This document shows, piece by piece, positions 5,365-24,493 of a DNA stretch of 64,000 nt. The translations under genes were made by a program, and so were the position numbers. The DNA is from an uncultured Pseudomonadota bacterium. GTDB taxonomy: Bacteria; Pseudomonadota; Alphaproteobacteria; Rs-D84. Below the pieces are notes generated by a model, which saw nothing but the letters and a program-made list of their open reading frames with translations, searched no databases and was not told the DNA's origin. The stretch spans positions 80,621 through 144,620 of the forward strand of contig CAMZIQ010000002.1 of NCBI GenBank assembly GCA_947307295.1, in the 5' to 3' direction. Position 1 is the stretch's first letter, and each line of letters opens with the position of its first letter.

Positions 5365-5370
5365 CACTGA

Positions 5371-8067: not shown

Positions 8068-8224
8068 AGCTCTTAGTGCGTAGCTGAGATTGTGTAATTA
8101 TTGCAGGCACAACAAAAACTTGAAAAATGTAAGTAACGTGGTATATTTAATGTGAGTACTCGTAAGTGTGCTTGTGACATTAGATAGCGGAACGGGTTTG
8201 ATCACCCAAGTACTAGTCTAGATA

Positions 8225-8871: not shown

Positions 8872-8872
8872 C

Positions 8873-10558
8873 CTAGTAGTATATTTTAAATCCATCGTCT
8901 GTACCCAACTCTTCTATCACATTTTGTATTCTTTTTATTGTTATTTGATCTACTGTTTGAAATCCTGCTTTGCCTTCTATGGATTTTGGATCAACTTTTT
9001 CTGGTATCTGAGAGACGATAAAGTTGAAATTTGTACCTTCTTGTTTGTTTTTTAGCAAGCAGGCATGACTAACTACAGATGCTCCACCATACATCTCAAA
9101 TATCACCCCGGATCGTTGCCCAATAAGATCCAAAAGCATAGTTATAAGTTTTACCGGTTTTTTTGATCCACTAAATGATATATGACCTTCATTTTGTAGT
9201 GTTGATTTAGTGTCTGAAACATCCCATATATCACCTAAAATAACAGAATTTTTCAAGGATCCATCTTCTTGTTTTATAAGGCTATCGCTAAAACGCAAAT
9301 ATAAGGCGTTTTTAGAGCCTTTTTCTAGTAACTTGCCCTTGTACTCGAATATAGGGTCTAAATCGTCTCTATGGGCATAAAAAACGCTTTTATAAGCATT
9401 TGATTTGGGGTAAACAGCTTTGTATAGGTCTTTTGCTATAGTATTGTACATATAATGTTTGAATTCTGGCTCTATTTTGATCATTTTTTCTATGTTTTTA
9501 GATAATAGTTCCATGTTGTGCTTTTTGAATAAGTTTATTATATGAGGTTGCTGTTTCAGGTGGTCAATCAAATATATTTTTTCGTGCACTCCAAAAGTCG
9601 AATTTGGTTTTTTGATAAGATGCTTAAAGGAGTTTTGCCAGTAAGTACTAGATGGAGTGTATAAACGTTGCAGGTGATTTACTTTTGATTTGTCTTTTGC
9701 ATATACTAATAAATAGGATTTTAGTCCGGGTAATCTGTATTGAGTCCTAGATACAATAATAGATGCAGGGGTGCTTGTTTTTATGACGATGTTGTTTATA
9801 AAGTTTTCTCTACCGTATACAGAATCCATAAGCACTTTTACATACGCCATTTCGTGCTCACTTACAGATAGAGCAACAAGTCCGTCTGGTTGAAGAAGTT
9901 TTTTTACTAATTCAAGGCGAGGAAAAAGGTGCTCTAAAAGCTGGCACGTTCCGTCAAATGAAGAATTATATGCTAATACAGCTCTGTTTGATGGCATGTT
10001 AAAGGGTATGTCCCCGTATGCAAGTAACAGTTTTCCTGAGTATTCTGGTAAGAGCCATTTACAAGCATCTATATTATCTTTCACTAGAACAAGATTTTTA
10101 GATTTTTCATTATTTGGTAAGGAGTTGAAAGATTTGTTTGGGTGAAATTTGACTTTTGTTGGAGTGTTTGTTAGTTTTTCTGCCCTTTCTCTTCCATTAA
10201 AGTATAGAAATAGTCCGTTTTTGTTTTGTGTTTGTGTGGTGTTGTTTTTAAAGTCTTCTAGCGATCCAATTATTCCTTCGTATCTATACAGTTGCCCCCA
10301 TTTTTTACCATTTTCAACTTTGCTTATAATTCCGGTGTTGCAGAGAAGTTTGAGTGTGTTGGTGATGGTTGGTCTTGGGATTTTTGTTTGTTTGCATAAA
10401 GTTGTGATGTCGAGTTGAGGGGTTTTGCAAAAAGTATCAAATATGGCTAATGCTGTGTTTTTTGATCTACCAATGTTTTCTATTTTTGCTCGATCTGTAG
10501 ATATAATTTCTGTATTGAATGTATTTATTGTTTTTCTGATGGTTTGTTTTTTTATCAT
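8873..10558 (-). CDS. winged-HTH fused to a divergent N6/N4 amino-methyltransferase-like domain (PF01555-like fold with degenerate catalytic and SAM motifs)
   Basis: N-terminal wHTH-like segment AIFDTFCKTPQLDITTLCKQTKIPRPTITNTLKLLCNTGIISK. Motif IV position reads LLLAYGDIPFNMP (DIPF rather than DPPY). Typical post-motif segments: LQPDGLVALSVSEH..., NNIVIKT, YLLVYAKDKSK. C-terminal motif I position reads GVIFEMYGGASVV rather than VLDPFxGSGTT. Confidence 0.65.
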   Translation of the reverse strand: MIKKQTIRKTINTFNTEIISTDRAKIENIGRSKNTALAIFDTFCKTPQLDITTLCKQTKIPRPTITNTLKLLCNTGIISKVENGKKWGQLYRYEGIIGSLEDFKNNTTQTQNKNGLFLYFNGRERAEKLTNTPTKVKFHPNKSFNSLPNNEKSKNLVLVKDNIDACKWLLPEYSGKLLLAYGDIPFNMPSNRAVLAYNSSFDGTCQLLEHLFPRLELVKKLLQPDGLVALSVSEHEMAYVKVLMDSVYGRENFINNIVIKTSTPASIIVSRTQYRLPGLKSYLLVYAKDKSKVNHLQRLYTPSSTYWQNSFKHLIKKPNSTFGVHEKIYLIDHLKQQPHIINLFKKHNMELLSKNIEKMIKIEPEFKHYMYNTIAKDLYKAVYPKSNAYKSVFYAHRDDLDPIFEYKGKLLEKGSKNALYLRFSDSLIKQEDGSLKNSVILGDIWDVSDTKSTLQNEGHISFSGSKKPVKLITMLLDLIGQRSGVIFEMYGGASVVSHACLLKNKQEGTNFNFIVSQIPEKVDPKSIEGKAGFQTVDQITIKRIQNVIEELGTDDGFKIYY

Positions 10559-10577
10559 GGTACGCTCTCTCTTGAAT

Positions 10578-10604
10578 CATTATTTTTTATAGCAGAAAAT
10601 AATG
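10578..10604. promoter_or_regulatory. 9-bp-stem inverted repeat cattatttt-N9-aaaataatg 20 bp upstream of the MTase-like gene
   Basis: Perfect inverted repeat seen directly. Lies in the divergent intergenic region between the MTase-like gene (-) and the AlpA-like gene (+). Confidence 0.3.
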
Positions 10605-10692
10605 AATAATGCCAATCTAAAAAAAATAACAAAGTATACATTTTTATCATAATTTTGAGTTCTAATATACATACAAAAAAGGATCTATACTA

Positions 10693-10875
10693 ATGCTAAC
10701 AAAACCAGAATTCACACAAGAAAAACTATTGACGGTTACAGAGGCAGCTAATATTTTGAATTTAAAACCTTCTACCTTATACCGTATCAAACAAAATGAA
10801 AGGTCTCCCAAAAAGGTCAAAGTTTGTGGCAGGCTTTATTTTACTCTTTCTTCTATAAACAACATAATGGGCTAA
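10693..10875 (+). CDS. AlpA-like HTH DNA-binding protein (prophage regulatory / excisionase family)
   Basis: LLTVTEAANILNLKPSTLYR helix-turn-helix and the GRLYF / SINNI C-terminal pattern of the AlpA family. RBS aagga 8 nt upstream. Convergently overlaps the 3' end of the Rep gene by ~100 bp. Confidence 0.65.
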   Translation: MLTKPEFTQEKLLTVTEAANILNLKPSTLYRIKQNERSPKKVKVCGRLYFTLSSINNIMG

Positions 10876-11709
10876 TCTCTTTTCTAATATCTTTCTCAAT
10901 TTGTTTATGGGGTTTGGTAAGAGTAATTCGCCACGTTGTTTGAGCCATAAAGCAAAGATAATGACGGTTTTCAGTTGCTTTATATCAAAATAATTCACTT
11001 TATGTGGGTTGAATCTCTCTTTGCCAAACCAAGTCTTCATTGTAAACAGCTCACTACCTTCGTTGATATGTGGATCTTCGTTGTCTTTTAATTCTTTGAC
11101 AAGGTAAGCACAAATTCCCTCTTTATCATAAACACATCTCAAATCAAAAACGGTCTTATAAAACTTATATTTATCAACGATTTTACTAATTGCATCACAT
11201 AATCTGTAGCCAATATATTCGTCATGATCTGTACTTTTGAAGAGAATATGAACATGCCACCAAAAATCATTCTTACCATGTTCCATTACACCAACACATT
11301 GTAAAGCGTTTCTAGTCCAATGATTTTTTTGTTCTATGGCAAGAGTTTGAATTTCTTTGAATAATTTTTTATAAGATTTTTTAGCGTCTTCTCTGTTTCT
11401 TGTTCTTCTAAAACCGGATTGGGTGCATCTGGGTAGTTTGATTGTCAAAAGATAAGAATAGTCTTCTTGCATTAGTTGTTTTTGCCAATATTTCCTAGAG
11501 TCTTGATATTCAGTTTGGTGATTCCTATAAAAACCATTCAATTCTTCATTTATCTCATTTGTAAATTTAGACATGATTTCCTCTAGCGTTCTAAACCTTC
11601 TTCTTATTTTCAATCCACGTTCTTCCACATAAAACGTTCTTCTTTTTATTGTTTTACTTAGTTGGGAATGTTGAACATCTAAATTAGAAAATAAATCATA
11701 ACCATTCAT
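10777..11709 (-). CDS. HUH-superfamily rolling-circle Rep / MobT-like relaxase candidate (310 aa)
   Basis: WWHVHILF (HUH motif) followed by Tyr-containing segments (DEYIGYRL, ICAYLVKELK), as in Rep_trans/MobT proteins. Divergent from the regulator gene across a promoter/operator region. Confidence 0.55.
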   Translation of the reverse strand: MNGYDLFSNLDVQHSQLSKTIKRRTFYVEERGLKIRRRFRTLEEIMSKFTNEINEELNGFYRNHQTEYQDSRKYWQKQLMQEDYSYLLTIKLPRCTQSGFRRTRNREDAKKSYKKLFKEIQTLAIEQKNHWTRNALQCVGVMEHGKNDFWWHVHILFKSTDHDEYIGYRLCDAISKIVDKYKFYKTVFDLRCVYDKEGICAYLVKELKDNEDPHINEGSELFTMKTWFGKERFNPHKVNYFDIKQLKTVIIFALWLKQRGELLLPNPINKLRKILEKRLAHYVVYRRKSKIKPATNFDLFGRPFILFDTV

Positions 11710-11971
11710 TTATTACCTTCTTGGTTTACTTTGTTTAATGAATGATCAACACACCTTTTGTTTTGGGTGCTAATCAGTTTGAATCAAAAAGCCCGGATTT
11801 ATAAGGGTTGAAGCGTAATCCAATCCAACAGGAGCGATTTGATTTATTTCCTAGAACTGTTTTTTTTCATAAAGTTGTAAAATTTTTCATTCTTTGTGAT
11901 TTTTTTGAGGAACGATTCGTAAAAAAAGACAAATTCGATACAAAAATAGGTGTTTTTTCTGGCAGGAGGCA

Positions 11972-12029
11972 AGTGTATACACTTTGTGTATAAAAAATAC
12001 TTGACATCGGTACACAAAAAGTGTATACT
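11972..12029 (+). promoter_or_regulatory. switch region: consensus sigma70 promoter (TTGACA 12001-12006, 17 bp spacer, TATACT 12024-12029) with GTGTAYAC operator repeats, including the 12-bp palindrome AGTGTATACACT at 11972-11983
   Basis: Sequence read directly. Operator-like motifs at 11972-83, 11986-93, 12008-15 (inverted) and 12019-29 overlap the -35 and -10 boxes. RBS aaagaggtg then ATG of the HTH regulator. Confidence 0.6.
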
Positions 12030-12058
12030 GTAGCTGTAACAAAAACAAAAGAGGTGTT

Positions 12059-12601
12059 TTGATGGAAAAATATAGAACAAAGTTTGGTACATGGATCTCT
12101 GTATTTTGTGCCAGACATGGATTAAACATCGCAAGGGCTGCTTATGAATTGGGGTTGGCTCCTACTACATTGGCATCTATTGTAGCTGGAAGACATCCTT
12201 TACCGGTGTTCTTGCGTGAAAATATCATAGCGACTTTCGGAAGATATTTGTCCGGAACAGATATTGCCGAAATGGATCAAAGCATTGTTGATACAGAGGC
12301 AGGAGCTGTGATTGTGTCAAGGAACTATAAAAAATACGTCAGTGCACAAACAGTGAATGACAAAGAATGGTGTCTAAAACTGATGGATGTAATGGCTAAA
12401 GCGACCAATAAAATGAACAAGGAGGAATCTGAAGAAATTTATGCTCGTTTGCAAGAGATTGCTGAACGCCCTGCACCAGTATCTATAGAATTAGACAAAG
12501 ATATAGATATTGAAACGCTGAGACAAGATATTCGCAGACGGTATAAAGACCCTGTAAAAACAGAACAAATTGTAGAAAAAATAAAAGAACTGAGACAATA
12601 A
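12059..12601 (+). CDS. XRE/Cro-like HTH transcriptional regulator (element repressor candidate), acidic coiled-coil C-terminus
   Basis: N-terminal HTH WISVFCARHGLNIARAAYELGLAPTTLASIVAGRH. Immediately downstream of the operator-rich promoter. Confidence 0.6.
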   Translation: MMEKYRTKFGTWISVFCARHGLNIARAAYELGLAPTTLASIVAGRHPLPVFLRENIIATFGRYLSGTDIAEMDQSIVDTEAGAVIVSRNYKKYVSAQTVNDKEWCLKLMDVMAKATNKMNKEESEEIYARLQEIAERPAPVSIELDKDIDIETLRQDIRRRYKDPVKTEQIVEKIKELRQ

Positions 12602-12715
12602 AAAATAAAGTGGGTGAACAAGCTGCAACCTGCTCACCCTAACAAACACCAAACGAGTTGGATGTCTGCCACAAAGTCATTTTAGCTCGTTTGGATCAAA
12701 AATCAAGAACCAAAG

Positions 12716-14029
12716 GTGACTAAAATGAGCAAACAAGAAAATATTACACAAACATTAGTAAATAAAATCGTATACAACATCGAAAAAGGCAACACGTCTG
12801 AATTATGTGATGTGTGGGATTCTAAGACATCAGGTTTTGGTATACGAGTTGGCAAAACCAATGCATCTTTTATTTTCAAATATAGAAATAAGGCAAACAA
12901 AGCCCAAACAAAAACATTTGGTAAAATAACCGAAATGTCTGTTGCTGAGGCTAGAAATCTATTGGACGCATTTAAACCAACAATAAAATCTGATCTTGCA
13001 ACAATTCAGAAAACTAATAAGAAATATACGGTGAAAGATTTATGTGAAAAATATCTTGCGGAACACCAAACTCGTGCAACAACGAAAAAACAAGACGAAA
13101 GCAGGATTGAAAGACACGTCTTGCCAACACTTGGCAACATACCATTACATTTATTGACAGCTAAAGATATTATGAATGCACAAACGGCTATTGCAAACGG
13201 TGATAAAAAAATAATTATAGCAGGACATAAAAACCCAAATAATCCACATTCATATATCAAAGTATCTGGCGGTCAAGGTGCTGCTAAAAGGGTTATGGAA
13301 ATGCTGAAAACAATTTTGAATTTTGCAGAAGACGAAGAGTTGATTGAAAAAAATCCTATGAATTCTCGTAAATTCAAAAAAATCAAATACGATAAAAAAG
13401 AAACAGCGTATCTCGAAAACAACAATTATGAAAATCTTGGTTATTTGTTGAAAAAGCATGAACAGCAATCAAAGAAAAGCAATCAAAGTGTGTTGTTTAT
13501 AAAATTATTGGCTTTGACGGGCTGTCGTAAAGGTGAATTATTAGGTCTTACTTGGAATCGAGTAGATTTTACCAACCAATATTTTGTGTTTGCTAAAACA
13601 AAAACTACAGGGGAACAAAAACGATATTTTGGATCTGCAGCAAAAAGATTATTGTTAGATATGCACCAAAAAGCTACATCCAACTACTTGTTCCCTAGTA
13701 TTACAAAAACAGGTACACATAGAAAAGATTGTTTGAGAGCTTTAAAGCAGATTTGTAAAACAGCACAAGAAAACAAAAGTCAATTTGATGCAATACAAAA
13801 ACTAACCCTACATGGTCTTAGACATTCATTTTCAACAATGTGTAACACCCTCTCTTTTCCCGATGTAATTAGAGAAGGACTTATGGGGCACAAGAATGGT
13901 GGTGTACAATATATTTATACACACAATACACATAACACAATGATTGAACATGCAGATAAAGTATCAGAAAGTATCAACACGTTGTTAGATACGGGATGTA
14001 AAAAAGCAGAATTGGAAAACAACAACTAA
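12716..14029 (+). CDS. int: tyrosine recombinase / phage integrase (P4-like, DUF4102 N-terminus); start possibly ATG 12725
   Basis: Box I LTGCRKGELLGLTWNRVD (Arg), box II HGLRHSF (H-x-x-R), and catalytic Tyr in HKNGGVQYIYTH. Adjacent to the tRNA att site. Confidence 0.92.
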   Translation: MTKMSKQENITQTLVNKIVYNIEKGNTSELCDVWDSKTSGFGIRVGKTNASFIFKYRNKANKAQTKTFGKITEMSVAEARNLLDAFKPTIKSDLATIQKTNKKYTVKDLCEKYLAEHQTRATTKKQDESRIERHVLPTLGNIPLHLLTAKDIMNAQTAIANGDKKIIIAGHKNPNNPHSYIKVSGGQGAAKRVMEMLKTILNFAEDEELIEKNPMNSRKFKKIKYDKKETAYLENNNYENLGYLLKKHEQQSKKSNQSVLFIKLLALTGCRKGELLGLTWNRVDFTNQYFVFAKTKTTGEQKRYFGSAAKRLLLDMHQKATSNYLFPSITKTGTHRKDCLRALKQICKTAQENKSQFDAIQKLTLHGLRHSFSTMCNTLSFPDVIREGLMGHKNGGVQYIYTHNTHNTMIEHADKVSESINTLLDTGCKKAELENNN

Positions 14030-14041
14030 AGAGGTAAAAAA

Positions 14042-14263
14042 ATGAAATTTATAACAGAAAGAGAATTAGCTAAATTTTTATCGAATGAATATGGTTTGCC
14101 AACATCGAAAAAATCATTAGAAAAATTACGTGCAAAAGGTAAAGCACCAAATTTTAGAGTTTGGGGTGGAAAAATTGTATATGAAAAGCAAGATGTACAG
14201 ACATGGCTCAACAATCAAATGGCGATTTGTTACAAGTACACAATGCCAAAATATAGCATATAA
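14042..14263 (+). CDS. excisionase-like HTH protein (HTH_17/AlpA-Xis family)
   Basis: ITERELAKFL ... NFRVWGGKIVYEKQDVQTWL pattern. Immediately follows the integrase, with RBS gaggtaaaaaaATG. Confidence 0.55.
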   Translation: MKFITERELAKFLSNEYGLPTSKKSLEKLRAKGKAPNFRVWGGKIVYEKQDVQTWLNNQMAICYKYTMPKYSI

Positions 14264-14273
14264 AAAAAGCAAA

Positions 14274-14291
14274 ATGCTCCCAATATGCTCC
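14274..14291 (+). promoter_or_regulatory. pair of ATGCTCC direct repeats 11 bp apart at the element right end (putative integrase/Xis arm-type sites); equivalent pair at the left end, 5483-5500
   Basis: atgctcc at 14274-80 and 14285-91. atgctcc at 5483-89 and 5494-5500. Same orientation and spacing (one helical turn) at both arms. Confidence 0.35.
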
Positions 14292-14340
14292 AAAATGATA
14301 AAAACCACAAAACTAACACAAACACTAGAGAATCAAAAAA

Positions 14341-14367
14341 CCCCGGAAATCCGGGGTAAATCTTTTT
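14341..14367 (+). terminator. Rho-independent terminator after xis (ccccgg-aaat-ccgggg then T-run)
   Basis: Hairpin and tctttttgtt read directly. Last feature before att. Confidence 0.5.
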
Positions 14368-14398
14368 GTTGGGGGGCTAAAATCTTCATAACGAATTT

Positions 14399-14446
14399 CA
14401 CGATGTCAACGTGACGCTCTAGCCAACTGAGCTAACCACCCAAAGC
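14399..14446. repeat. att core copy 2 (junction between the two element units; partial tRNA-Val 5' half)
   Basis: Exact 48-bp direct repeat. Preceded by the element right end and followed by the element left end. Confidence 0.85.
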
Positions 14447-14593
14447 CACTGAATTATAACATCTAAATTCTAGAATGCAAATAAAATCGCTTTTTTTTGC
14501 TTTGGTGGCTTTTAGATATAATTTGCTATAGCATCCCCTTTTCACCTACAGTATACTCTAGAGCATGCTCCAAATATGCTCCTAAATGGTGTT

Positions 14594-14803
14594 TTAGTAG
14601 TGTTTATTGGCAAATTTATCTATTCTAATTCGTTTTCCCCATGAATTTACAACAATAACATCTTCACCACTATGAAAAACATCACGAGGTTTGTGGAATT
14701 CGAGTCTTCGACCACCAATTTGTTTGACTATTACATCATCGTCTTTCCAACGGTATCTCAAATTGCTTTTTGTTTGCATGTTTAAACCTCTTACTATGAT
14801 CAT
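14594..14803 (-). CDS. hypothetical small protein (copy 2 of 5512..5721)
   Basis: Identical translation at offset +9082. Confidence 0.35.
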   Translation of the reverse strand: MIIVRGLNMQTKSNLRYRWKDDDVIVKQIGGRRLEFHKPRDVFHSGEDVIVVNSWGKRIRIDKFANKHY

Positions 14804-14905
14804 TAGAACTAAATTTGGTGCAGATTTTTACCATAAAAGGAATAAAAACACACATTTTAGAGTATAAATATTGTGTAAACACTGTTTTCGTGTTATAATT
14901 GCTAC

Positions 14906-16057
14906 ATGTTTTATGATGTACAACCGATTCAGAATAAAGAAGACTATAAAAGAATGTTGACTCTTGTAGGTCAGCTTTCGAATCTTTTTTCTGAGAGCGA
15001 TTGTCCTTATTTATCTTACAGGGCTCATGAAAATATATTTTGTAGATTTTTGGGAGCAGAGAATTTAGCCAGATCTGATTGTTCTGCTGATGCCAAGAAA
15101 GATAAAGTTGGTGTTGGTTTGAAAACGTGGATGGGTAACAATGATCAGAAGGTTGCAGAATTTGGGCGTTTGAAGAATAGTTATGCTAGTCTTTCTGGAA
15201 TTGAATTAGTAAAGAAAATAGCTGAATACAGGAATGAACGCATCAGAATTACAAAGAGGTTACATGGATTAGATTCTATGATATACCATGTTGTAAAACG
15301 TGTTCCCGGAGCTATGCAAATTCTTGAGGGTGTGTTTGACGAGATAAATATAGAAAACATCACATTATTATCAAACACTGGGAACGATAACAACACATAC
15401 TTTACTGATGGAAAACACAAATATCATTTTAGCACATCAAAAAACACTCTGTATATGATATTTGATTTTCTTGAACAGTTGGATTCTTTTGAGGTAAAAA
15501 TATTAGAAAATCCTTATGAATGGTTGTCGAAAGCTACAGATAAAAAAACTATTTCCAAAGACATCAAGAAAGTTGTCAAAGCTATACAAGAGGAATCAGC
15601 AAGAAAACCCCAATTATGTTTGAGATTATATTCGGTAAAGAAGGGTGAAAGGTTTGTTGCTGAGAAGAGTGGTTTAAATCAGTGGAACGCATCAGGAAGA
15701 GCAAGGAATCCTAATGAGTTATATATACCATACCCTAAGGAAGACAGAGACAGAATTCCTAATTTCTTTCCACCAAGAGACACACCTTTTACACTACATT
15801 TGCCAGATGGTACAGCTATTTCTGCTAAAGTGTGCCAAGCAGACAACAAGGCTATAATGAGTAATCCTAACAGTTTATTGGGCAAATGGCTTTTGCGAGA
15901 TGTGTTTGAATTGCCAGATAATACTTTAGTAACATATCAAATGTTAGAAAGGTTTGGTATAGATAGTGTGATTTTCACTAGAAATGCAGAATTAGATTAT
16001 TCCGTAGAATTTTCAGAATTGGGCACTTATGAACGTTTTTATGAGATTGAAGACTAA
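14906..16057 (+). CDS. candidate Type II restriction endonuclease (copy 2)
   Basis: Identical translation at offset +9082. Confidence 0.45.
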   Translation: MFYDVQPIQNKEDYKRMLTLVGQLSNLFSESDCPYLSYRAHENIFCRFLGAENLARSDCSADAKKDKVGVGLKTWMGNNDQKVAEFGRLKNSYASLSGIELVKKIAEYRNERIRITKRLHGLDSMIYHVVKRVPGAMQILEGVFDEINIENITLLSNTGNDNNTYFTDGKHKYHFSTSKNTLYMIFDFLEQLDSFEVKILENPYEWLSKATDKKTISKDIKKVVKAIQEESARKPQLCLRLYSVKKGERFVAEKSGLNQWNASGRARNPNELYIPYPKEDRDRIPNFFPPRDTPFTLHLPDGTAISAKVCQADNKAIMSNPNSLLGKWLLRDVFELPDNTLVTYQMLERFGIDSVIFTRNAELDYSVEFSELGTYERFYEIED

Positions 16058-16102
16058 AAGAGTTTTTGGTTTTTTTATTTTATTTTTTTTTGTTTTATTT
16101 TA

Positions 16103-17149
16103 TTGCGGCGTGCCGCAATTTATGATAGAGTAAAATATGGTTACAGACACAGGAGTTTAAATATGTATACAATAGCATCGTTTTTTGCCGGTGTTGGTGG
16201 CATAGACTTAGGTTTTGAACAAACTAATAAATGCAAAACAATCTATGCTAATGAGTTTGATAGTTATGCAAGTGAGACGTTTGAAAAAAATTTTCCCGAT
16301 GTCAAAGTTGATCAACGAGATATACATGATGTGCCTGAAAAAGATATACCAAATGTTGATATTTTTATAGGCGGTTTTCCATGTCAGGCATTTTCTATAG
16401 CCGGCTACAGACGTGGCTTTGAGGACGAGAAAGGTAGAGGAAATTTGTTTTTTGAGCTTGTTCGTATGATGAAGGCAAAAAAACCTCGTGTTGCGTTGTT
16501 TGAAAATGTAAAAAATTTAGTTAGCCACGACAAAGGGAATACGTTTCGTGTGATTTGTAATGAGTTGGAAAAATTGGGTTATTATTATACATATCATGTT
16601 TTGAATGCCATGGATTATGGGAATATGGCTCAAAACAGGGAACGTATATATATAGTAGCATTCAAAAATAAGAAAGATTTTATAAAATTCAAATGGGCGA
16701 AGACGGTACCTCTAACAACAACAGTAAAAGATATTATAGATTTTACTAAGAAGGTAGACGATAGATTTTATTATACAAAGGGAAAATACAAGGGTGATAT
16801 ATATGAAAGGCTTGTTGAAGCTACAAAAGGTGACGATCCTAAAAATCCGGCAATATACCAATGGCGTAGAAAATATGTTAGAAAAAACAAAAGTGGAGTG
16901 GTGCCAACTCTAACAGCTAATCAAGGTGAAGGTGGTCATAATGTTTGTATTGTAAAAACAAAATATGGTTTGAGAAAAATGACCCCTCAAGAATGCTTTA
17001 ATACCCAAGGCTTTCCAAAAACGTTTTTGTTACCAAAGCAAAGCGATGCACGTTTATATAAGCAGGCTGGCAATTCTGTTTGTGTACCGGTTATACACAA
17101 TATAGCAGAAAACATAGTAACAGCTTTGTCTGACGGCGAAGATAGCTAG
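16103..17149 (+). CDS. DNA (cytosine-5)-methyltransferase (copy 2; start probably 16163)
   Basis: Identical translation at offset +9082, with the same m5C motifs. Confidence 0.9.
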   Translation: MRRAAIYDRVKYGYRHRSLNMYTIASFFAGVGGIDLGFEQTNKCKTIYANEFDSYASETFEKNFPDVKVDQRDIHDVPEKDIPNVDIFIGGFPCQAFSIAGYRRGFEDEKGRGNLFFELVRMMKAKKPRVALFENVKNLVSHDKGNTFRVICNELEKLGYYYTYHVLNAMDYGNMAQNRERIYIVAFKNKKDFIKFKWAKTVPLTTTVKDIIDFTKKVDDRFYYTKGKYKGDIYERLVEATKGDDPKNPAIYQWRRKYVRKNKSGVVPTLTANQGEGGHNVCIVKTKYGLRKMTPQECFNTQGFPKTFLLPKQSDARLYKQAGNSVCVPVIHNIAENIVTALSDGEDS

Positions 17150-17306
17150 AGCTCTTAGTGCGTAGCTGAGATTGTGTAATTATTGCAGGCACAACAAAAA
17201 CTTGAAAAATGTAAGTAACGTGGTATATTTAATGTGAGTACTCGTAAGTGTGCTTGTGACATTAGATAGCGGAACGGGTTTGATCACCCAAGTACTAGTC
17301 TAGATA

Positions 17307-17428
17307 GTGTCCCAACCGAATGGTTGGGATGCCTTGTGCTATACAATAGGTCTTACCGACTAAAAGCCTTGGGGTTCTGTACTTGAATTGATCAACATCC
17401 CAACCGCCTAATAAAGCGGTTGTTTTTT
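17307..17428 (+). repeat. leader-like repeat C (copy 2) ending in a terminator hairpin at the Nuc-like start
   Basis: Identical to 8225..8346 at +9082. Confidence 0.5.
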
Positions 17429-17953
17429 ATGTTGAAAGCTACTGGATGTTTTTTGTTTTTGATTCTTATATTTGAATTGGTTGCATGTAATCAAAATGCT
17501 ATACAACCAATTCAAGAAAACCATAATGATATAAAGATATTTTTTACTCCCGGCACAGAATGTGAAAATAATATTATTGAAAGAATAAACCAATCAAAAA
17601 AAGTGGACATAGCTGTTTATTCAATTACAAACCCTGCTATTACAAAGGCTATTATTTCTGCATATAAACATGGGGTAAATGTAAGAATTGTGACAGATAA
17701 AACACAAGCATCAGGAAAAAAATCATTAGTCTCTCAAATACGTGCTGCCGGAATACCTGTTTTGACTAATAAAAAACACAAGATAGAACATAATAAGTTT
17801 GCTGTTTTTGACGATGTACATGTTGTTTCTGGATCTTATAACTGGACAACAAACGCAACCAACTATAACAGTGAAAATTGCCTATTCTTTGATCAACCAG
17901 ACATGGAATATTCTAAAAGATTTGAGTATCTATGGAAGGTTTATAGTGAATAG
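17420..17953 (+). CDS. Nuc-like PLD-family endonuclease lipoprotein (copy 2)
   Basis: Identical translation at offset +9082. Confidence 0.8.
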   Translation: MFFMLKATGCFLFLILIFELVACNQNAIQPIQENHNDIKIFFTPGTECENNIIERINQSKKVDIAVYSITNPAITKAIISAYKHGVNVRIVTDKTQASGKKSLVSQIRAAGIPVLTNKKHKIEHNKFAVFDDVHVVSGSYNWTTNATNYNSENCLFFDQPDMEYSKRFEYLWKVYSE

Positions 17954-17954
17954 C

Positions 17955-19640
17955 CTAGTAGTATATTTTAAATCCATCGTCTGTACCCAACTCTTCTATC
18001 ACATTTTGTATTCTTTTTATTGTTATTTGATCTACTGTTTGAAATCCTGCTTTGCCTTCTATGGATTTTGGATCAACTTTTTCTGGTATCTGAGAGACGA
18101 TAAAGTTGAAATTTGTACCTTCTTGTTTGTTTTTTAGCAAGCAGGCATGACTAACTACAGATGCTCCACCATACATCTCAAATATCACCCCGGATCGTTG
18201 CCCAATAAGATCCAAAAGCATAGTTATAAGTTTTACCGGTTTTTTTGATCCACTAAATGATATATGACCTTCATTTTGTAGTGTTGATTTAGTGTCTGAA
18301 ACATCCCATATATCACCTAAAATAACAGAATTTTTCAAGGATCCATCTTCTTGTTTTATAAGGCTATCGCTAAAACGCAAATATAAGGCGTTTTTAGAGC
18401 CTTTTTCTAGTAACTTGCCCTTGTACTCGAATATAGGGTCTAAATCGTCTCTATGGGCATAAAAAACGCTTTTATAAGCATTTGATTTGGGGTAAACAGC
18501 TTTGTATAGGTCTTTTGCTATAGTATTGTACATATAATGTTTGAATTCTGGCTCTATTTTGATCATTTTTTCTATGTTTTTAGATAATAGTTCCATGTTG
18601 TGCTTTTTGAATAAGTTTATTATATGAGGTTGCTGTTTCAGGTGGTCAATCAAATATATTTTTTCGTGCACTCCAAAAGTCGAATTTGGTTTTTTGATAA
18701 GATGCTTAAAGGAGTTTTGCCAGTAAGTACTAGATGGAGTGTATAAACGTTGCAGGTGATTTACTTTTGATTTGTCTTTTGCATATACTAATAAATAGGA
18801 TTTTAGTCCGGGTAATCTGTATTGAGTCCTAGATACAATAATAGATGCAGGGGTGCTTGTTTTTATGACGATGTTGTTTATAAAGTTTTCTCTACCGTAT
18901 ACAGAATCCATAAGCACTTTTACATACGCCATTTCGTGCTCACTTACAGATAGAGCAACAAGTCCGTCTGGTTGAAGAAGTTTTTTTACTAATTCAAGGC
19001 GAGGAAAAAGGTGCTCTAAAAGCTGGCACGTTCCGTCAAATGAAGAATTATATGCTAATACAGCTCTGTTTGATGGCATGTTAAAGGGTATGTCCCCGTA
19101 TGCAAGTAACAGTTTTCCTGAGTATTCTGGTAAGAGCCATTTACAAGCATCTATATTATCTTTCACTAGAACAAGATTTTTAGATTTTTCATTATTTGGT
19201 AAGGAGTTGAAAGATTTGTTTGGGTGAAATTTGACTTTTGTTGGAGTGTTTGTTAGTTTTTCTGCCCTTTCTCTTCCATTAAAGTATAGAAATAGTCCGT
19301 TTTTGTTTTGTGTTTGTGTGGTGTTGTTTTTAAAGTCTTCTAGCGATCCAATTATTCCTTCGTATCTATACAGTTGCCCCCATTTTTTACCATTTTCAAC
19401 TTTGCTTATAATTCCGGTGTTGCAGAGAAGTTTGAGTGTGTTGGTGATGGTTGGTCTTGGGATTTTTGTTTGTTTGCATAAAGTTGTGATGTCGAGTTGA
19501 GGGGTTTTGCAAAAAGTATCAAATATGGCTAATGCTGTGTTTTTTGATCTACCAATGTTTTCTATTTTTGCTCGATCTGTAGATATAATTTCTGTATTGA
19601 ATGTATTTATTGTTTTTCTGATGGTTTGTTTTTTTATCAT
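17955..19640 (-). CDS. wHTH plus degenerate amino-MTase-like protein (copy 2)
   Basis: Identical translation at offset +9082. Confidence 0.65.
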   Translation of the reverse strand: MIKKQTIRKTINTFNTEIISTDRAKIENIGRSKNTALAIFDTFCKTPQLDITTLCKQTKIPRPTITNTLKLLCNTGIISKVENGKKWGQLYRYEGIIGSLEDFKNNTTQTQNKNGLFLYFNGRERAEKLTNTPTKVKFHPNKSFNSLPNNEKSKNLVLVKDNIDACKWLLPEYSGKLLLAYGDIPFNMPSNRAVLAYNSSFDGTCQLLEHLFPRLELVKKLLQPDGLVALSVSEHEMAYVKVLMDSVYGRENFINNIVIKTSTPASIIVSRTQYRLPGLKSYLLVYAKDKSKVNHLQRLYTPSSTYWQNSFKHLIKKPNSTFGVHEKIYLIDHLKQQPHIINLFKKHNMELLSKNIEKMIKIEPEFKHYMYNTIAKDLYKAVYPKSNAYKSVFYAHRDDLDPIFEYKGKLLEKGSKNALYLRFSDSLIKQEDGSLKNSVILGDIWDVSDTKSTLQNEGHISFSGSKKPVKLITMLLDLIGQRSGVIFEMYGGASVVSHACLLKNKQEGTNFNFIVSQIPEKVDPKSIEGKAGFQTVDQITIKRIQNVIEELGTDDGFKIYY

Positions 19641-19774
19641 GGTACGCTCTCTCTTGAATCATTATTTTTTATAGCAGAAAATAATGAATAATGCCAATCT
19701 AAAAAAAATAACAAAGTATACATTTTTATCATAATTTTGAGTTCTAATATACATACAAAAAAGGATCTATACTA

Positions 19775-19957
19775 ATGCTAACAAAACCAGAATTCACACA
19801 AGAAAAACTATTGACGGTTACAGAGGCAGCTAATATTTTGAATTTAAAACCTTCTACCTTATACCGTATCAAACAAAATGAAAGGTCTCCCAAAAAGGTC
19901 AAAGTTTGTGGCAGGCTTTATTTTACTCTTTCTTCTATAAACAACATAATGGGCTAA
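19775..19957 (+). CDS. AlpA-like HTH protein (copy 2)
   Basis: Identical translation at offset +9082. Confidence 0.65.
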   Translation: MLTKPEFTQEKLLTVTEAANILNLKPSTLYRIKQNERSPKKVKVCGRLYFTLSSINNIMG

Positions 19958-20791
19958 TCTCTTTTCTAATATCTTTCTCAATTTGTTTATGGGGTTTGGT
20001 AAGAGTAATTCGCCACGTTGTTTGAGCCATAAAGCAAAGATAATGACGGTTTTCAGTTGCTTTATATCAAAATAATTCACTTTATGTGGGTTGAATCTCT
20101 CTTTGCCAAACCAAGTCTTCATTGTAAACAGCTCACTACCTTCGTTGATATGTGGATCTTCGTTGTCTTTTAATTCTTTGACAAGGTAAGCACAAATTCC
20201 CTCTTTATCATAAACACATCTCAAATCAAAAACGGTCTTATAAAACTTATATTTATCAACGATTTTACTAATTGCATCACATAATCTGTAGCCAATATAT
20301 TCGTCATGATCTGTACTTTTGAAGAGAATATGAACATGCCACCAAAAATCATTCTTACCATGTTCCATTACACCAACACATTGTAAAGCGTTTCTAGTCC
20401 AATGATTTTTTTGTTCTATGGCAAGAGTTTGAATTTCTTTGAATAATTTTTTATAAGATTTTTTAGCGTCTTCTCTGTTTCTTGTTCTTCTAAAACCGGA
20501 TTGGGTGCATCTGGGTAGTTTGATTGTCAAAAGATAAGAATAGTCTTCTTGCATTAGTTGTTTTTGCCAATATTTCCTAGAGTCTTGATATTCAGTTTGG
20601 TGATTCCTATAAAAACCATTCAATTCTTCATTTATCTCATTTGTAAATTTAGACATGATTTCCTCTAGCGTTCTAAACCTTCTTCTTATTTTCAATCCAC
20701 GTTCTTCCACATAAAACGTTCTTCTTTTTATTGTTTTACTTAGTTGGGAATGTTGAACATCTAAATTAGAAAATAAATCATAACCATTCAT
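19859..20791 (-). CDS. HUH Rep/MobT-like protein (copy 2)
   Basis: Identical translation at offset +9082. Confidence 0.55.
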   Translation of the reverse strand: MNGYDLFSNLDVQHSQLSKTIKRRTFYVEERGLKIRRRFRTLEEIMSKFTNEINEELNGFYRNHQTEYQDSRKYWQKQLMQEDYSYLLTIKLPRCTQSGFRRTRNREDAKKSYKKLFKEIQTLAIEQKNHWTRNALQCVGVMEHGKNDFWWHVHILFKSTDHDEYIGYRLCDAISKIVDKYKFYKTVFDLRCVYDKEGICAYLVKELKDNEDPHINEGSELFTMKTWFGKERFNPHKVNYFDIKQLKTVIIFALWLKQRGELLLPNPINKLRKILEKRLAHYVVYRRKSKIKPATNFDLFGRPFILFDTV

Positions 20792-21053
20792 TTATTACCT
20801 TCTTGGTTTACTTTGTTTAATGAATGATCAACACACCTTTTGTTTTGGGTGCTAATCAGTTTGAATCAAAAAGCCCGGATTTATAAGGGTTGAAGCGTAA
20901 TCCAATCCAACAGGAGCGATTTGATTTATTTCCTAGAACTGTTTTTTTTCATAAAGTTGTAAAATTTTTCATTCTTTGTGATTTTTTTGAGGAACGATTC
21001 GTAAAAAAAGACAAATTCGATACAAAAATAGGTGTTTTTTCTGGCAGGAGGCA

Positions 21054-21111
21054 AGTGTATACACTTTGTGTATAAAAAATACTTGACATCGGTACACAAA
21101 AAGTGTATACT
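21054..21111 (+). promoter_or_regulatory. switch region copy 2 (TTGACA 21083-21088, TATACT 21106-21111, GTGTAYAC operators)
   Basis: Identical to 11972..12029 at +9082. Confidence 0.6.
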
Positions 21112-21140
21112 GTAGCTGTAACAAAAACAAAAGAGGTGTT

Positions 21141-21683
21141 TTGATGGAAAAATATAGAACAAAGTTTGGTACATGGATCTCTGTATTTTGTGCCAGACAT
21201 GGATTAAACATCGCAAGGGCTGCTTATGAATTGGGGTTGGCTCCTACTACATTGGCATCTATTGTAGCTGGAAGACATCCTTTACCGGTGTTCTTGCGTG
21301 AAAATATCATAGCGACTTTCGGAAGATATTTGTCCGGAACAGATATTGCCGAAATGGATCAAAGCATTGTTGATACAGAGGCAGGAGCTGTGATTGTGTC
21401 AAGGAACTATAAAAAATACGTCAGTGCACAAACAGTGAATGACAAAGAATGGTGTCTAAAACTGATGGATGTAATGGCTAAAGCGACCAATAAAATGAAC
21501 AAGGAGGAATCTGAAGAAATTTATGCTCGTTTGCAAGAGATTGCTGAACGCCCTGCACCAGTATCTATAGAATTAGACAAAGATATAGATATTGAAACGC
21601 TGAGACAAGATATTCGCAGACGGTATAAAGACCCTGTAAAAACAGAACAAATTGTAGAAAAAATAAAAGAACTGAGACAATAA
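21141..21683 (+). CDS. XRE-like HTH regulator (copy 2)
   Basis: Identical translation at offset +9082. Confidence 0.6.
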   Translation: MMEKYRTKFGTWISVFCARHGLNIARAAYELGLAPTTLASIVAGRHPLPVFLRENIIATFGRYLSGTDIAEMDQSIVDTEAGAVIVSRNYKKYVSAQTVNDKEWCLKLMDVMAKATNKMNKEESEEIYARLQEIAERPAPVSIELDKDIDIETLRQDIRRRYKDPVKTEQIVEKIKELRQ

Positions 21684-21797
21684 AAAATAAAGTGGGTGAA
21701 CAAGCTGCAACCTGCTCACCCTAACAAACACCAAACGAGTTGGATGTCTGCCACAAAGTCATTTTAGCTCGTTTGGATCAAAAATCAAGAACCAAAG

Positions 21798-23111
21798 GTG
21801 ACTAAAATGAGCAAACAAGAAAATATTACACAAACATTAGTAAATAAAATCGTATACAACATCGAAAAAGGCAACACGTCTGAATTATGTGATGTGTGGG
21901 ATTCTAAGACATCAGGTTTTGGTATACGAGTTGGCAAAACCAATGCATCTTTTATTTTCAAATATAGAAATAAGGCAAACAAAGCCCAAACAAAAACATT
22001 TGGTAAAATAACCGAAATGTCTGTTGCTGAGGCTAGAAATCTATTGGACGCATTTAAACCAACAATAAAATCTGATCTTGCAACAATTCAGAAAACTAAT
22101 AAGAAATATACGGTGAAAGATTTATGTGAAAAATATCTTGCGGAACACCAAACTCGTGCAACAACGAAAAAACAAGACGAAAGCAGGATTGAAAGACACG
22201 TCTTGCCAACACTTGGCAACATACCATTACATTTATTGACAGCTAAAGATATTATGAATGCACAAACGGCTATTGCAAACGGTGATAAAAAAATAATTAT
22301 AGCAGGACATAAAAACCCAAATAATCCACATTCATATATCAAAGTATCTGGCGGTCAAGGTGCTGCTAAAAGGGTTATGGAAATGCTGAAAACAATTTTG
22401 AATTTTGCAGAAGACGAAGAGTTGATTGAAAAAAATCCTATGAATTCTCGTAAATTCAAAAAAATCAAATACGATAAAAAAGAAACAGCGTATCTCGAAA
22501 ACAACAATTATGAAAATCTTGGTTATTTGTTGAAAAAGCATGAACAGCAATCAAAGAAAAGCAATCAAAGTGTGTTGTTTATAAAATTATTGGCTTTGAC
22601 GGGCTGTCGTAAAGGTGAATTATTAGGTCTTACTTGGAATCGAGTAGATTTTACCAACCAATATTTTGTGTTTGCTAAAACAAAAACTACAGGGGAACAA
22701 AAACGATATTTTGGATCTGCAGCAAAAAGATTATTGTTAGATATGCACCAAAAAGCTACATCCAACTACTTGTTCCCTAGTATTACAAAAACAGGTACAC
22801 ATAGAAAAGATTGTTTGAGAGCTTTAAAGCAGATTTGTAAAACAGCACAAGAAAACAAAAGTCAATTTGATGCAATACAAAAACTAACCCTACATGGTCT
22901 TAGACATTCATTTTCAACAATGTGTAACACCCTCTCTTTTCCCGATGTAATTAGAGAAGGACTTATGGGGCACAAGAATGGTGGTGTACAATATATTTAT
23001 ACACACAATACACATAACACAATGATTGAACATGCAGATAAAGTATCAGAAAGTATCAACACGTTGTTAGATACGGGATGTAAAAAAGCAGAATTGGAAA
23101 ACAACAACTAA
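21798..23111 (+). CDS. int: tyrosine integrase (copy 2)
   Basis: Identical translation at offset +9082. Confidence 0.92.
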   Translation: MTKMSKQENITQTLVNKIVYNIEKGNTSELCDVWDSKTSGFGIRVGKTNASFIFKYRNKANKAQTKTFGKITEMSVAEARNLLDAFKPTIKSDLATIQKTNKKYTVKDLCEKYLAEHQTRATTKKQDESRIERHVLPTLGNIPLHLLTAKDIMNAQTAIANGDKKIIIAGHKNPNNPHSYIKVSGGQGAAKRVMEMLKTILNFAEDEELIEKNPMNSRKFKKIKYDKKETAYLENNNYENLGYLLKKHEQQSKKSNQSVLFIKLLALTGCRKGELLGLTWNRVDFTNQYFVFAKTKTTGEQKRYFGSAAKRLLLDMHQKATSNYLFPSITKTGTHRKDCLRALKQICKTAQENKSQFDAIQKLTLHGLRHSFSTMCNTLSFPDVIREGLMGHKNGGVQYIYTHNTHNTMIEHADKVSESINTLLDTGCKKAELENNN

Positions 23112-23123
23112 AGAGGTAAAAAA

Positions 23124-23345
23124 ATGAAATTTATAACAGAAAGAGAATTAGCTAAATTTTTATCGAATGAATATGGTTTGCCAACATCGAAAAAATCATT
23201 AGAAAAATTACGTGCAAAAGGTAAAGCACCAAATTTTAGAGTTTGGGGTGGAAAAATTGTATATGAAAAGCAAGATGTACAGACATGGCTCAACAATCAA
23301 ATGGCGATTTGTTACAAGTACACAATGCCAAAATATAGCATATAA
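23124..23345 (+). CDS. excisionase-like HTH protein (copy 2)
   Basis: Identical translation at offset +9082. Confidence 0.55.
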   Translation: MKFITERELAKFLSNEYGLPTSKKSLEKLRAKGKAPNFRVWGGKIVYEKQDVQTWLNNQMAICYKYTMPKYSI

Positions 23346-23422
23346 AAAAAGCAAAATGCTCCCAATATGCTCCAAAATGATAAAAACCACAAAACTAACA
23401 CAAACACTAGAGAATCAAAAAA

Positions 23423-23449
23423 CCCCGGAAATCCGGGGTAAATCTTTTT
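23423..23449 (+). terminator. Rho-independent terminator after xis (copy 2)
   Basis: Identical to 14341..14367. Confidence 0.5.
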
Positions 23450-23480
23450 GTTGGGGGGCTAAAATCTTCATAACGAATTT

Positions 23481-23528
23481 CACGATGTCAACGTGACGCT
23501 CTAGCCAACTGAGCTAACCACCCAAAGC
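23481..23528. repeat. att core copy 3 (attR; orphan tRNA-Val 5' half next to the native upstream flank)
   Basis: Exact 48-bp direct repeat. Downstream sequence diverges from the element (gaaagtattataacaactt...). Confidence 0.85.
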
Positions 23529-23623
23529 GAAAGTATTATAACAACTTATTTTGGATTTGCAAATAAAAAACCAGAATTATTAGTTTTTATCTTGATGATT
23601 TTTTTAAAGTTTGCTAGACTTGT

Positions 23624-23816
23624 CTTGTCAGGAAGAGTTTTTCTGATGGGGTGTCGAAACCCGTTTAAGAGCGTCAAAACGTTCCTATTGTTTTGATGAA
23701 AAATCTCCAACCAAAATGGTTGGAGGGCTGTCGAATAATATCGTTTATGATAAAATAAGACGCACAATTCTCTTAAATTGTTTCGAACCTCCAACCGCCT
23801 GTAATTCATCAGGCGT
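23624..23816 (+). repeat. leader-like repeat A (~190 nt), ending in hairpin cgcctg-taattcat-caggcg plus TTTTT, 22 nt upstream of the OMP gene start
   Basis: About 85% identical to the reverse complement of 40478..40660. Contains the palindrome ctccaaccaaaatggttggag. A putative promoter ttgatg-17-tagact lies at 23591-23619. Confidence 0.6.
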
Positions 23817-23842
23817 TTTTAATATAAACAAAGGATAAAACA

Positions 23843-24493
23843 ATGAAAAAATTTTTTATGACAAGTTCTTGTGTGGCTTTGGCTTTGACAAGTTTTTCTG
23901 CGTATGCCGCAGATATTAAACCTTTTATCGGTGTTAATGCATCTCTTAGTGGCGTTGCTTATTCTGATGATGTAAAAACAGCAACTGATGATTTAGGTGT
24001 TAAATTGCCAGAATCTTTTTTCGGTGTTGGGGCGGAAGCTGGTTTAAAAATCGAAACGGATAGAGTTTATAGTGCGGGGTTTACATTCGCATATGATTAT
24101 GCTGTTGATTCAGAAGCAGATATTGATGCTATCGCGGATGATTATGTGTCTTCTGTAGAATTGGGTTTTTCGGCTTGGAGTTTAACATTTGATAACTATC
24201 TTCGCGTTTCTGGTGCTGCGAAACATCGTCAAGATATTGTTTTGGGGGTTGGTTTTGGGAATGCAAAAGAAAGATTTAAAATGGATGCCACGTATTTAGG
24301 AGAATCATACGGTTTATATGATATAGATGAATCTGATGATGGTAATGTTGTTGTTTTCAAAGTCGGGTATATTTATAATGTGGGTGAACATGCGGATTTA
24401 GTTTTAAATGGGCGTTTTTTTGTGCCGACAGATTCCGAAACAGATGTAGATGTTTTGTTTAATATGAGTGCTGGAGTAAGAGTTGTATTCTGA
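23843..24493 (+). CDS. outer-membrane beta-barrel protein (OmpW/OmpA-barrel-like) with signal peptide
   Basis: Signal peptide MKKFFMTSSCVALALTSFSAYA. Alternating amphipathic strands and a C-terminal ...VRVVF aromatic terminus typical of OMPs. Confidence 0.6.
   Translation: MKKFFMTSSCVALALTSFSAYAADIKPFIGVNASLSGVAYSDDVKTATDDLGVKLPESFFGVGAEAGLKIETDRVYSAGFTFAYDYAVDSEADIDAIADDYVSSVELGFSAWSLTFDNYLRVSGAAKHRQDIVLGVGFGNAKERFKMDATYLGESYGLYDIDESDDGNVVVFKVGYIYNVGEHADLVLNGRFFVPTDSETDVDVLFNMSAGVRVVF

Follow-up and report, generated by a model that had tools for sequence, protein, structure and literature searches.

In a 64,000-nt stretch of contig CAMZIQ010000002.1 from an uncultured alphaproteobacterium (hereafter, the window), two related repeats and a diverged third, each ending in a terminator hairpin, stand directly upstream of three genes for signal-peptide proteins. 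What do these repeats do for the genes that follow them? A first, sequence-only reading took them for an RNA element with its own promoter and intrinsic terminator, oriented with the gene, and perhaps using the terminator as a conditional gate. The checks it proposed included tabulating the genes behind further copies, a folding and covariation analysis, and an Rfam search. Comparing the three copies (A, B and C; Table 1) with relatives from other genomes, we find a family of RNAs with a promoter, a covarying fold, competing helices, a terminator and a linkage to the following gene; the comparative data thus support the RNA element as first read. We propose, with moderate confidence, that these are leader RNAs gated by the terminator, the downstream gene being expressed by conditional read-through.

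Three copies in the window precede three genes

Performing blastn, we find that copies A and B are 82% identical across 181 nt (E 8e-44), close to the first estimate of about 85%. The similarity starts a few bases 5' of the 5' hairpin, at the predicted transcription start, and stops at the terminator; the flanks are unalignable. Both copies carry a CTCCAACC/GGTTGGAG hairpin. Its loop was first read as 4 nt; copy A has 5 (AAAAT) and copy B has 6 (AAGCAT). Each copy also has a second CCTCCAACC running into a GC-rich hairpin followed by Ts, and a consensus scan bears out the terminators read at the ends of both.

Copy C was not detected by BLAST. A covariance model built from relatives (R1, described below) recovered it in full length, with an E of 1.5e-6 over 462 kb. 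The third copy and its duplicate are therefore real, and longer than first thought. Compared with shuffled sequences, all three copies fold far beyond chance (z-scores in Table 1). The terminator ends 22 nt before the start codon in A (ATG at 23843) and 26 nt before it in B (ATG at 40448), on the strand of the gene and within the 20-30 nt initially noted. The terminator of copy C runs straight into the ATG at 8347.

The element is a family linked to downstream genes

We scanned one genome per species with the pattern CCAACC-N(2-7)-TGGTTGG-N(52-82)-CCAACCGCC. Of the 88 stretches that it yielded, about 50 are clear relatives of A and B. All of these belong to alphaproteobacterial genome bins of uncultured organisms from gut, rumen, termite or mouse. 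Candidatus Enterousia is among them, as are the RUG and MGBC bins and bins labelled Rickettsiales, and a single genome holds up to 7 stretches. The CCAACC/TGGTTGG motif pattern had 0 matches in viral contigs. Searching with R1 (176 positions, 47 pairs), we found 62 copies at E < 1e-12 in 52 loci of 26 bins, some of them outside the search pattern. The leader is 156-213 nt long (median 179).

Upstream of every family copy lies a -35 element (TTGCA, TTGAA or TTGTA), followed after 17 nt by a -10 element (TAnAAT). The latter matches TATAAT at 5.3 of 6 positions on average and usually starts 12-13 nt 5' of the first paired base. The putative promoters of A and B are weaker versions located at this family-wide position, which is exactly where the sequence-only reading had placed that of A (TTGATG-17-TAGACT). 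A perfect TATAAT lies 12 nt further upstream of the -10 of copy B, at 40680-40675. In many copies, a GGCGG/GGTGG-TTTTTT terminator tail is seen directly 5' of the -35 (upstream flanks of L043, L065, L080, L018, L004 and others), which suggests insulated units, or neighbouring elements with the same kind of terminator.

Downstream, a same-strand open reading frame (ORF) of at least 50 aa with a Shine-Dalgarno-like motif follows 47 of the 58 testable copies (those with at least 250 nt of following sequence), 19-68 nt past the model end with a median of 26. Several of the non-matches are parsing failures of the ORF picker. In this tabulation of copies from pattern-chosen loci, orientation and position are biased relative to the gene. 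The products fall into two groups. The first holds signal-peptide proteins: a paralogous Flg_new-repeat family, Cys-rich secreted proteins, beta-barrels like outer-membrane proteins (OMPs), and lipoproteins. The second holds XRE-type helix-turn-helix proteins of 64-78 aa, which follow about a third of the family copies. The idea that the copies precede envelope or secreted proteins therefore holds for the three in the window and has to be narrowed for the family.

The Flg_new protein behind copy B has paralogues behind other leader copies. A homologue of the window OMP, 45% identical and located in another bin (L083), likewise stands behind a leader copy, so the pair of leader and OMP has been kept through substantial divergence. 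A conserved leader ORF was not found in the 62 copies: an ATG at the boundary of P0 and a is present in only 30, opening ORFs of 1-50 codons. A leader-peptide attenuator was rejected on this ground.

Covariation supports a pseudoknotted or dynamic fold

Read 5' to 3', the RNA comprises hairpin P0; a short a:c hairpin (GGGG/CCCY or GAGG/CCUC) whose loop contains the 7-nt strand b; strand d; hairpin P2 (GCGUC...GACG); the A-rich linker AAAAUCU; strand e (CUCCAACC), a small loop and strand e' (GGUUGGAGG); P4 with its conserved loop GAAUAUAUUGAAUAAG; P5 (CAAUU/AAUUG or CUAUU/AAUAG), whose loop is d'; strand b'; strand e'' (CCUCCAACC); and the terminator. In A and B, P4 takes a long form with an extra inner hairpin (GAAUAAUA-hairpin-AAAAUAAG).

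We measured covariation on a model-based alignment of 61 distinct copies. In the nested helices, 92.9% of cells pair, compared with 32-54% when partners are slid by 1-3 columns. Changes on both sides occur in 33 of the 47 pairs, and the covariation score is 0.432 against 0.153 for shuffled data; together with the folding z-scores, this answers the proposed folding check in favour of a structured RNA. P4 (96.1% paired) and P5 (97.7%) both covary. The a:c hairpin shows 24 double-change cells against 10.1 +/- 2.3, in register +1; register 0 showed no covariation and was rejected. The long-range helix b:b' is 99.2% paired in the family; most of its positions show 4 pair types, and about 25 different 7-mers occur. 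For d:d', an alignment-free comparison gave a mean of -7.9 kcal/mol for the cognate duplex and -1.8 +/- 0.2 when strands were permuted between copies; 0 of 2000 permutations reached the cognate value. As P5 carries d' in its loop and covariation is seen in both helices, the fold is either pseudoknotted or dynamic.

As a main partner for the CCU triplet of e'', we also considered a:a' (GGG/CCU). It was rejected: it is 88.7% paired with 12 broken cells at one pair, and the same CCU columns are 99-100% paired, and so better kept, in e':e''. The local a:c hairpin is likewise better kept, strand a covarying more strongly with strand c. The best-kept set of helices thus comprises a:c, e':e'', P4 and P5, to which b:b' and d:d' add pseudoknot contacts; the alternative state combines e:e' with an intact terminator. 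Pairing in the helices is preserved by way of G-U pairs and of changes that are compensatory on one strand only, and R1 scores the reverse strand at 20-35 bits versus 110-160 bits.

The strands of b:b' and d:d' are hypervariable and differ between copies of one genome, while the loops and the e segments are nearly invariant. This variability might stop many co-expressed copies from mispairing with one another.

Strand e' has two partners, one of which shares bases with the terminator

Strand e' pairs in two ways. The e:e' helix is 93.6% paired with covariation, and e':e'' is 99.1% paired, with 18 double-change cells versus 1.8 expected. Where e' varies (GGUUGGGAG, GGUUGGAAG, GGUUGGAUG, GGUUGGGGAU), e'' follows, and usually e does too. 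In two divergent copies, which the pattern scan could not have selected, e, e' and e'' have all changed together (CUCCUGA(A)CCC / GGGUCAGGAG / CCUCCUGACC). Copy C obeys the same rule (UCCCAACC / GGUUGGGAUG / CAUCCCAACC). These concerted changes indicate that CUCCAACC / GGUUGGAG / CCUCCAACC is under selection as two mutually exclusive RNA helices.

A T-rich tail ends 61 of 62 family copies. The 3-4 bases that end e'' (AACC) also begin the terminator stem, an overlap present in at least 56 of 61 copies. When AACC is withheld, the terminator hairpin weakens from a mean of -11.3 to -4.8 kcal/mol, and that of copy B from -11.6 to -4.3. The layout is that of a termination switch: both pairings of GGUUGGAGG, with upstream CUCCAACC and downstream CCUCCAACC, covary, and AACC is common to e'' and the terminator stem.

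Read on the opposite strand, the e:e' hairpin with its preceding A-run is a textbook intrinsic terminator (CTCCAACC..GGTTGGAG ATTTTT), at 23705-23725 (-) and 40566-40587 (+). It could block antisense transcription into the leader.

A proposed terminator gate and its alternatives

In the mechanism that we propose, each copy would be a self-contained transcription unit with a sigma-70 promoter, a compact, partly pseudoknotted leader RNA and an intrinsic terminator; about 26 nt past the latter would come a gene with a ribosome-binding site and no room for a promoter of its own. By default, transcription would stop at the terminator, giving an abundant short RNA and a low level of the downstream gene, which would be expressed only by read-through. 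Termination should be the default because e is transcribed earlier than e'', and e:e' together with the terminator is part of the nested minimum-energy fold. In the predicted OFF state, e' (GGUUGGAGG) pairs with upstream e (CUCCAACC), leaving e'' (CCUCCAACC) free and its AACC able to enter the terminator stem. In the ON state, e' would pair with e''; this would close a three-way junction like that of sRNA-Xcc1 (see below), and the terminator would lose 3-4 of its 6-7 pairs. Candidates for the switching signal are proteins, small molecules and other RNAs. The gate first proposed fits this anatomy; that read-through is conditional, with e/e'/e'' as the gate, we infer from the anatomy and from the precedent of the Bartonella RNA Brt.

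Several points weigh against this reading. The terminator stems of copy A and of two others (L019, L087) overlap e'' by a single base. In copy A, where the stem is shifted, e':e'' would therefore barely weaken the terminator (-10.4 to -8.7 kcal/mol), which hardly depends on e''. Nested-only energy models, which leave pseudoknots unscored, place the ON state 12-17 kcal/mol above the minimum-energy fold. Since e':e'' crosses b:b', it may form a pseudoknot permanently instead of serving as a switch arm. Both A and B have weak promoters, with at most 8/12 consensus matches, and that of A, at 8/12, falls under the scan threshold. Finally, the loci are 8-kb windows chosen by sequence pattern, and copies without a downstream gene may be under-sampled among them.

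Some of these points would suit a constitutive leaky attenuator, with fixed low read-through or insulation, which would sense no signal and whose alternative helices would be intermediates of folding or a static pseudoknot. The default fold has an intact terminator, the terminator of copy A hardly depends on e'', and neither a ligand nor a leader peptide is evident. However, covariation of three segments combined with the sharing of AACC in at least 56 of 61 copies is hard to explain without selection for exclusive states, and the phage relatives carry a different but equally two-state platform. We hold a leaky attenuator to be unlikely, while taking it seriously.

Slightly less probable still are genes for trans-acting small RNAs (sRNAs), in which RNA and gene merely travel together, the terminator is simply the end of the RNA, and the RNA acts on distant mRNAs by base-pairing, with its CCUCC (anti-Shine-Dalgarno-like) segments as one possible pairing site. 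A promoter and a strong terminator on each copy would be expected of such genes, CCUCC motifs occur twice per RNA, and both sRNA-Xcc1 and Brt1 were initially described as sRNAs. Yet the next gene, with its Shine-Dalgarno motif, lies a median of 26 nt away and leaves no promoter space in 47/58 copies, and every conserved fold has the CCUCC segments in base pairs. This reading would be compatible with a dual role. A DNA-level repeat, either mobile (a miniature inverted-repeat transposable element, MITE, or one like repetitive extragenic palindromes, REP) or made of protein-binding inverted repeats such as XRE operators, is very improbable: the element is multi-copy, has a perfect 8-bp inverted repeat plus a third direct copy and in some cases lies in or beside a mobile island, but it lacks terminal inverted repeats and target duplications, its similarity is bounded by the predicted transcription start and terminator, its helices tolerate G-U and compensate on one strand, its reverse strand scores far lower, and its orientation is tied to the gene, so the first verdict that it is no random MITE stands.

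The family is a distant relative of sRNA-Xcc1

The Rfam search returned no family for the element at threshold; in the window, only two tRNAs reach their gathering thresholds. Under relaxed thresholds, the closest family is sRNA-Xcc1 (RF02221) of Xanthomonas campestris, integron cassettes and prophages, which matches copy A from e' to e'' at 39.6 bits against a cutoff of 53. Copies B and C have no sRNA-Xcc1 match at E <= 1, and among about 10 further family copies one matches (39.1 bits), whereas true examples reach 69-73 bits. All scores being under 53 bits, membership in sRNA-Xcc1 was rejected.

We therefore compared the family with three sRNA-Xcc1 records from a plasmid collection (those at 69-73 bits) and more than 120 elements of viral contigs found through the conserved P4 motif; phage counts refer to 96 non-redundant elements. 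Both families have a three-way junction closed by a G-rich/C-rich helix (here e':e''); of its two hairpins, the first has A-rich loops (GAAUA...AAUAAG) and the second is P5. They also share a position directly 5' of a same-strand gene (76/96 in phages, 47/58 here), a context feature that lies outside the Rfam model. In the 76 phage cases, the ORF with its Shine-Dalgarno motif lies within 80 nt, and its N-terminus is typical of BRO-N, KilA-N or Rha-like phage proteins. According to published remarks, sRNA-Xcc1 precedes symE in integron cassettes and an ORF6N gene in APSE phages. As mapped in Xanthomonas, where it was first described as an sRNA, sRNA-Xcc1 is 88 nt long, compared with about 180 nt for the window family.

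Examining the upstream 200 nt of genuine sRNA-Xcc1 elements, we find a strand that is complementary both to the P5 loop and to the junction preceding e''. Its cognate energy is -24.4 kcal/mol, versus -20.5 +/- 0.36 permuted (60 elements, 0/2000 permutations). The corresponding values in the window family are -15.1 and -6.0 kcal/mol (0/2000 permutations), and the upstream strand reads alike, (A)GGUGUCGAAACCU...d...GCGG in sRNA-Xcc1 and GGGGUGUCGAAACCC...GCGUC in the window. It follows from this strand that the published 88-nt RNA of Rfam would be the 3' domain of the same larger architecture.

The two families are wired differently. Ours has in addition the upstream e copy and the intrinsic terminator; in phage sRNA-Xcc1, an e-like partner is found in only 14/96 and a T-run in only 5/96. 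There, a downstream strand overlaps the Shine-Dalgarno sequence and mimics the upstream strand (-18.7 versus -14.2 +/- 0.35 kcal/mol, 0/2000). Downstream of the window family's terminator, a search for such a mimic strand gave no signal (-8.0 versus -7.9 kcal/mol, 663/2000 permutations). In phage and prophage sRNA-Xcc1 (L094-L173 and other viral loci, e.g. L104, L098, and L093 at 1182-1330), the P5 loop and junction are complementary to both strands, upstream and downstream. The two strands are thus laid out as in a translational switch, an arrangement that appears not to have been described in the literature searched. In that literature, we found no publication that links sRNA-Xcc1 to leader or switch function, or to Brt.

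The sRNA-Xcc1 match also led us to consider a bridge or seek RNA of IS110/IS1111 elements, which would have a DEDD-type recombinase gene next to it. This was rejected: the ORF before copy C, at 7021-8067, is a C5 DNA methylase with no recombinase nearby, and no transposase was found next to copies A and B.

Brt of Bartonella and other known systems

Brt1-9 are structured RNAs of 194-203 nt, each about 15 nt before a promoter-less XRE-HTH (helix-turn-helix) gene, trp, and deletion of the 3' stem-loop of Brt1 raises transcription of the promoter-less trp1 downstream (PMC8070961; PMC5387305). Brt is reported as specific to the genus Bartonella, and Brt1 was first described as an sRNA. Like our family, Brt is multi-copy, about 190-200 nt long, highly structured and alphaproteobacterial, and the 3' stem-loop of each lies about 15-25 nt before a gene that, in our family, seems to lack a promoter of its own. 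A small XRE-type regulator stands downstream of Brt and of about a third of our family copies, and of none of the three window copies, which precede secreted proteins.

Using a published primer, we located Brt copies on Bartonella plasmids. By eye, they have a 5' hairpin and an a-b-d stretch that pairs with d'-b'-a'; an A-rich linker leads into an e:e' hairpin, and d:d' carries one compensatory change between two copies. R1 with filters off found no match at these copies (L089 and L090, positions 1501-1700), nor did an Rfam scan, and the conserved motifs differ (CCCGG in Brt versus CCAACC). We therefore claim an architectural and a likely functional resemblance to Brt and not membership. On the same plasmids, near-threshold sRNA-Xcc1 matches (47-49 bits) were seen at 2225-2314 of L089 and 2206-2293 of L090, about 500 nt downstream of the Brt copy and directly before a hypothetical gene. 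The best, weak match of R1 falls on the same spot.

In summary of these comparisons, the window family is a distant, differently wired relative of sRNA-Xcc1 and Brt, its architecture matching the extended sRNA-Xcc1 and, by eye, Brt. With terminating riboswitches and attenuators, it shares the logic of terminator, anti-terminator and anti-anti-terminator in a 5' leader; as in riboswitches, a conserved structured core is joined to different expression platforms by lineage. Unlike typical riboswitches and attenuators, it has downstream genes without a shared metabolic theme, and a leader peptide is not evident.

Features of the window

Copy C is present twice because it lies in an island in tRNA-Val(gac) that occurs twice in tandem. 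The 9,082-bp island spans 5308-14469 and 14390-23551 (region 5283-23551), the two copies being 99.9% identical, and at the end of each about 52 nt of the tRNA 5' half are repeated. Its cargo comprises an NgoFVII-like restriction enzyme, a C5 methylase, a PLD nuclease, an N6/N4 methylase and a tyrosine integrase. Opposite copy A, an 87-aa ORF (23546-23809, -) is most likely spurious, given the RNA evidence.

Table 1. Leader copies, their parts and the genes that follow them in the window.
Feature	Position	Strand	Details
Copy A putative promoter	23592-23620	+	-35 TTGATG 23592-23597; 17-nt spacer; -10 TAGACT 23615-23620
Copy A leader RNA	23623-23821	+	R1 126.4 bits, E 2e-34; fold z-score -8.0
Copy A P0	23627-23647	+	
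Copy A a:c hairpin	~23648-23662	+	GGG(G)/CCC
Copy A strand b	23654-23660	+	TCGAAAC; partner b' GTTTCGA 23780-23786
Copy A strand d	23664-23671	+	TTTAAGAG; partner P5 loop d' CTCTTAAA 23770-23777
Copy A P2	23671-23698	+	
Copy A P3 hairpin	23705-23726	+	e CTCCAACC 23705-23712 : e' GGTTGGAGG 23718-23726
Copy A P4	23727-23763	+	
Copy A P5	23765-23780	+	
Copy A e''	23788-23796	+	CCTCCAACC; alternative partner of e'
Copy A intrinsic terminator	23796-23820	+	CGCCTG-8-CAGGCG, then TTTTT; consensus scan
Gene after copy A	23843-24493	+	216-aa outer-membrane beta-barrel-like protein, signal peptide; Pfam OMP_b-brl E 5e-5, below curated cutoff
Copy B putative promoter	40691-40663	-	-35 TTGTTT 40691-40686; 17-nt spacer; -10 AACAAT 40668-40663
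Copy B leader RNA	40475-40660	-	R1 145 bits, E 7.6e-40; fold z-score -6.3
Copy B b and b'	40629-40623; 40512-40506	-	
Copy B d and d'	40618-40612; 40522-40516	-	
Copy B e, e' and e''	40587-40580; 40573-40565; 40504-40496	-	
Copy B terminator	40499-40478	-	AACCGCC-8-GGCGGTT; consensus scan
Gene after copy B	39642-40448	-	268-aa secreted protein, Flg_new repeat; Pfam Flg_new E 1.8e-5
Copy C promoter-like site	8120-8147	+	TTGAAA-16-TATATT, TG before -10
Copy C, diverged leader RNA	8170-8346	+	R1 match 8170-8343, 31 bits, full-length; z-score -4.5
Copy C segments		+	e (U)CCCAACC; e' GGTTGGGATG; e'' CATCCCAACC
Copy C terminator	8319-8340 + T6, to 8346	+	CAACCGC-8-GCGGTTG; consensus scan
Gene after copy C	8347-8871	+	PLD-family nuclease, lipoprotein-type signal peptide; Pfam PLDc_2 E 3.5e-25
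Exact duplicate of copy C	17252-17428	+	R1 match 17252-17425; second tandem island copy

Meaning for the organisms and the RNA class

The comparison joins two separately studied RNAs with unsettled mechanisms, sRNA-Xcc1 of plant pathogens and phages and Brt of Bartonella. Tentatively, and as a possibility toward which we do not yet lean, the window family, sRNA-Xcc1 and probably Brt could be branches of one widespread class of sensor-like 5' leader RNAs with a real size of about 170-200 nt. Such a class would span prophages, integron cassettes, plasmids and gut alphaproteobacteria. It would have a conserved pseudoknotted core and interchangeable platforms: here an intrinsic terminator, in phages a mimic strand that sequesters the Shine-Dalgarno sequence. 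If this is true, the class would be an orphan riboswitch or protein-responsive switch over accessory genes (antirepressor-like proteins, SymE toxins, XRE regulators and surface proteins), and the trans-acting sRNA published at 88 nt would represent no more than its 3' domain. Our comparison suggests that only half of the functional RNA is covered by the Rfam model of sRNA-Xcc1. The switch hypothesis can be tested by mutation, in e/e'/e'' and the terminator here, and in the upstream versus the Shine-Dalgarno-overlapping mimic strand in phages.

For the uncultured gut and rumen alphaproteobacteria of the Candidatus Enterousia group and their relatives, the family provides a defined multi-copy regulatory RNA, one that stands before their secreted repeat proteins, outer-membrane proteins and small XRE regulators.

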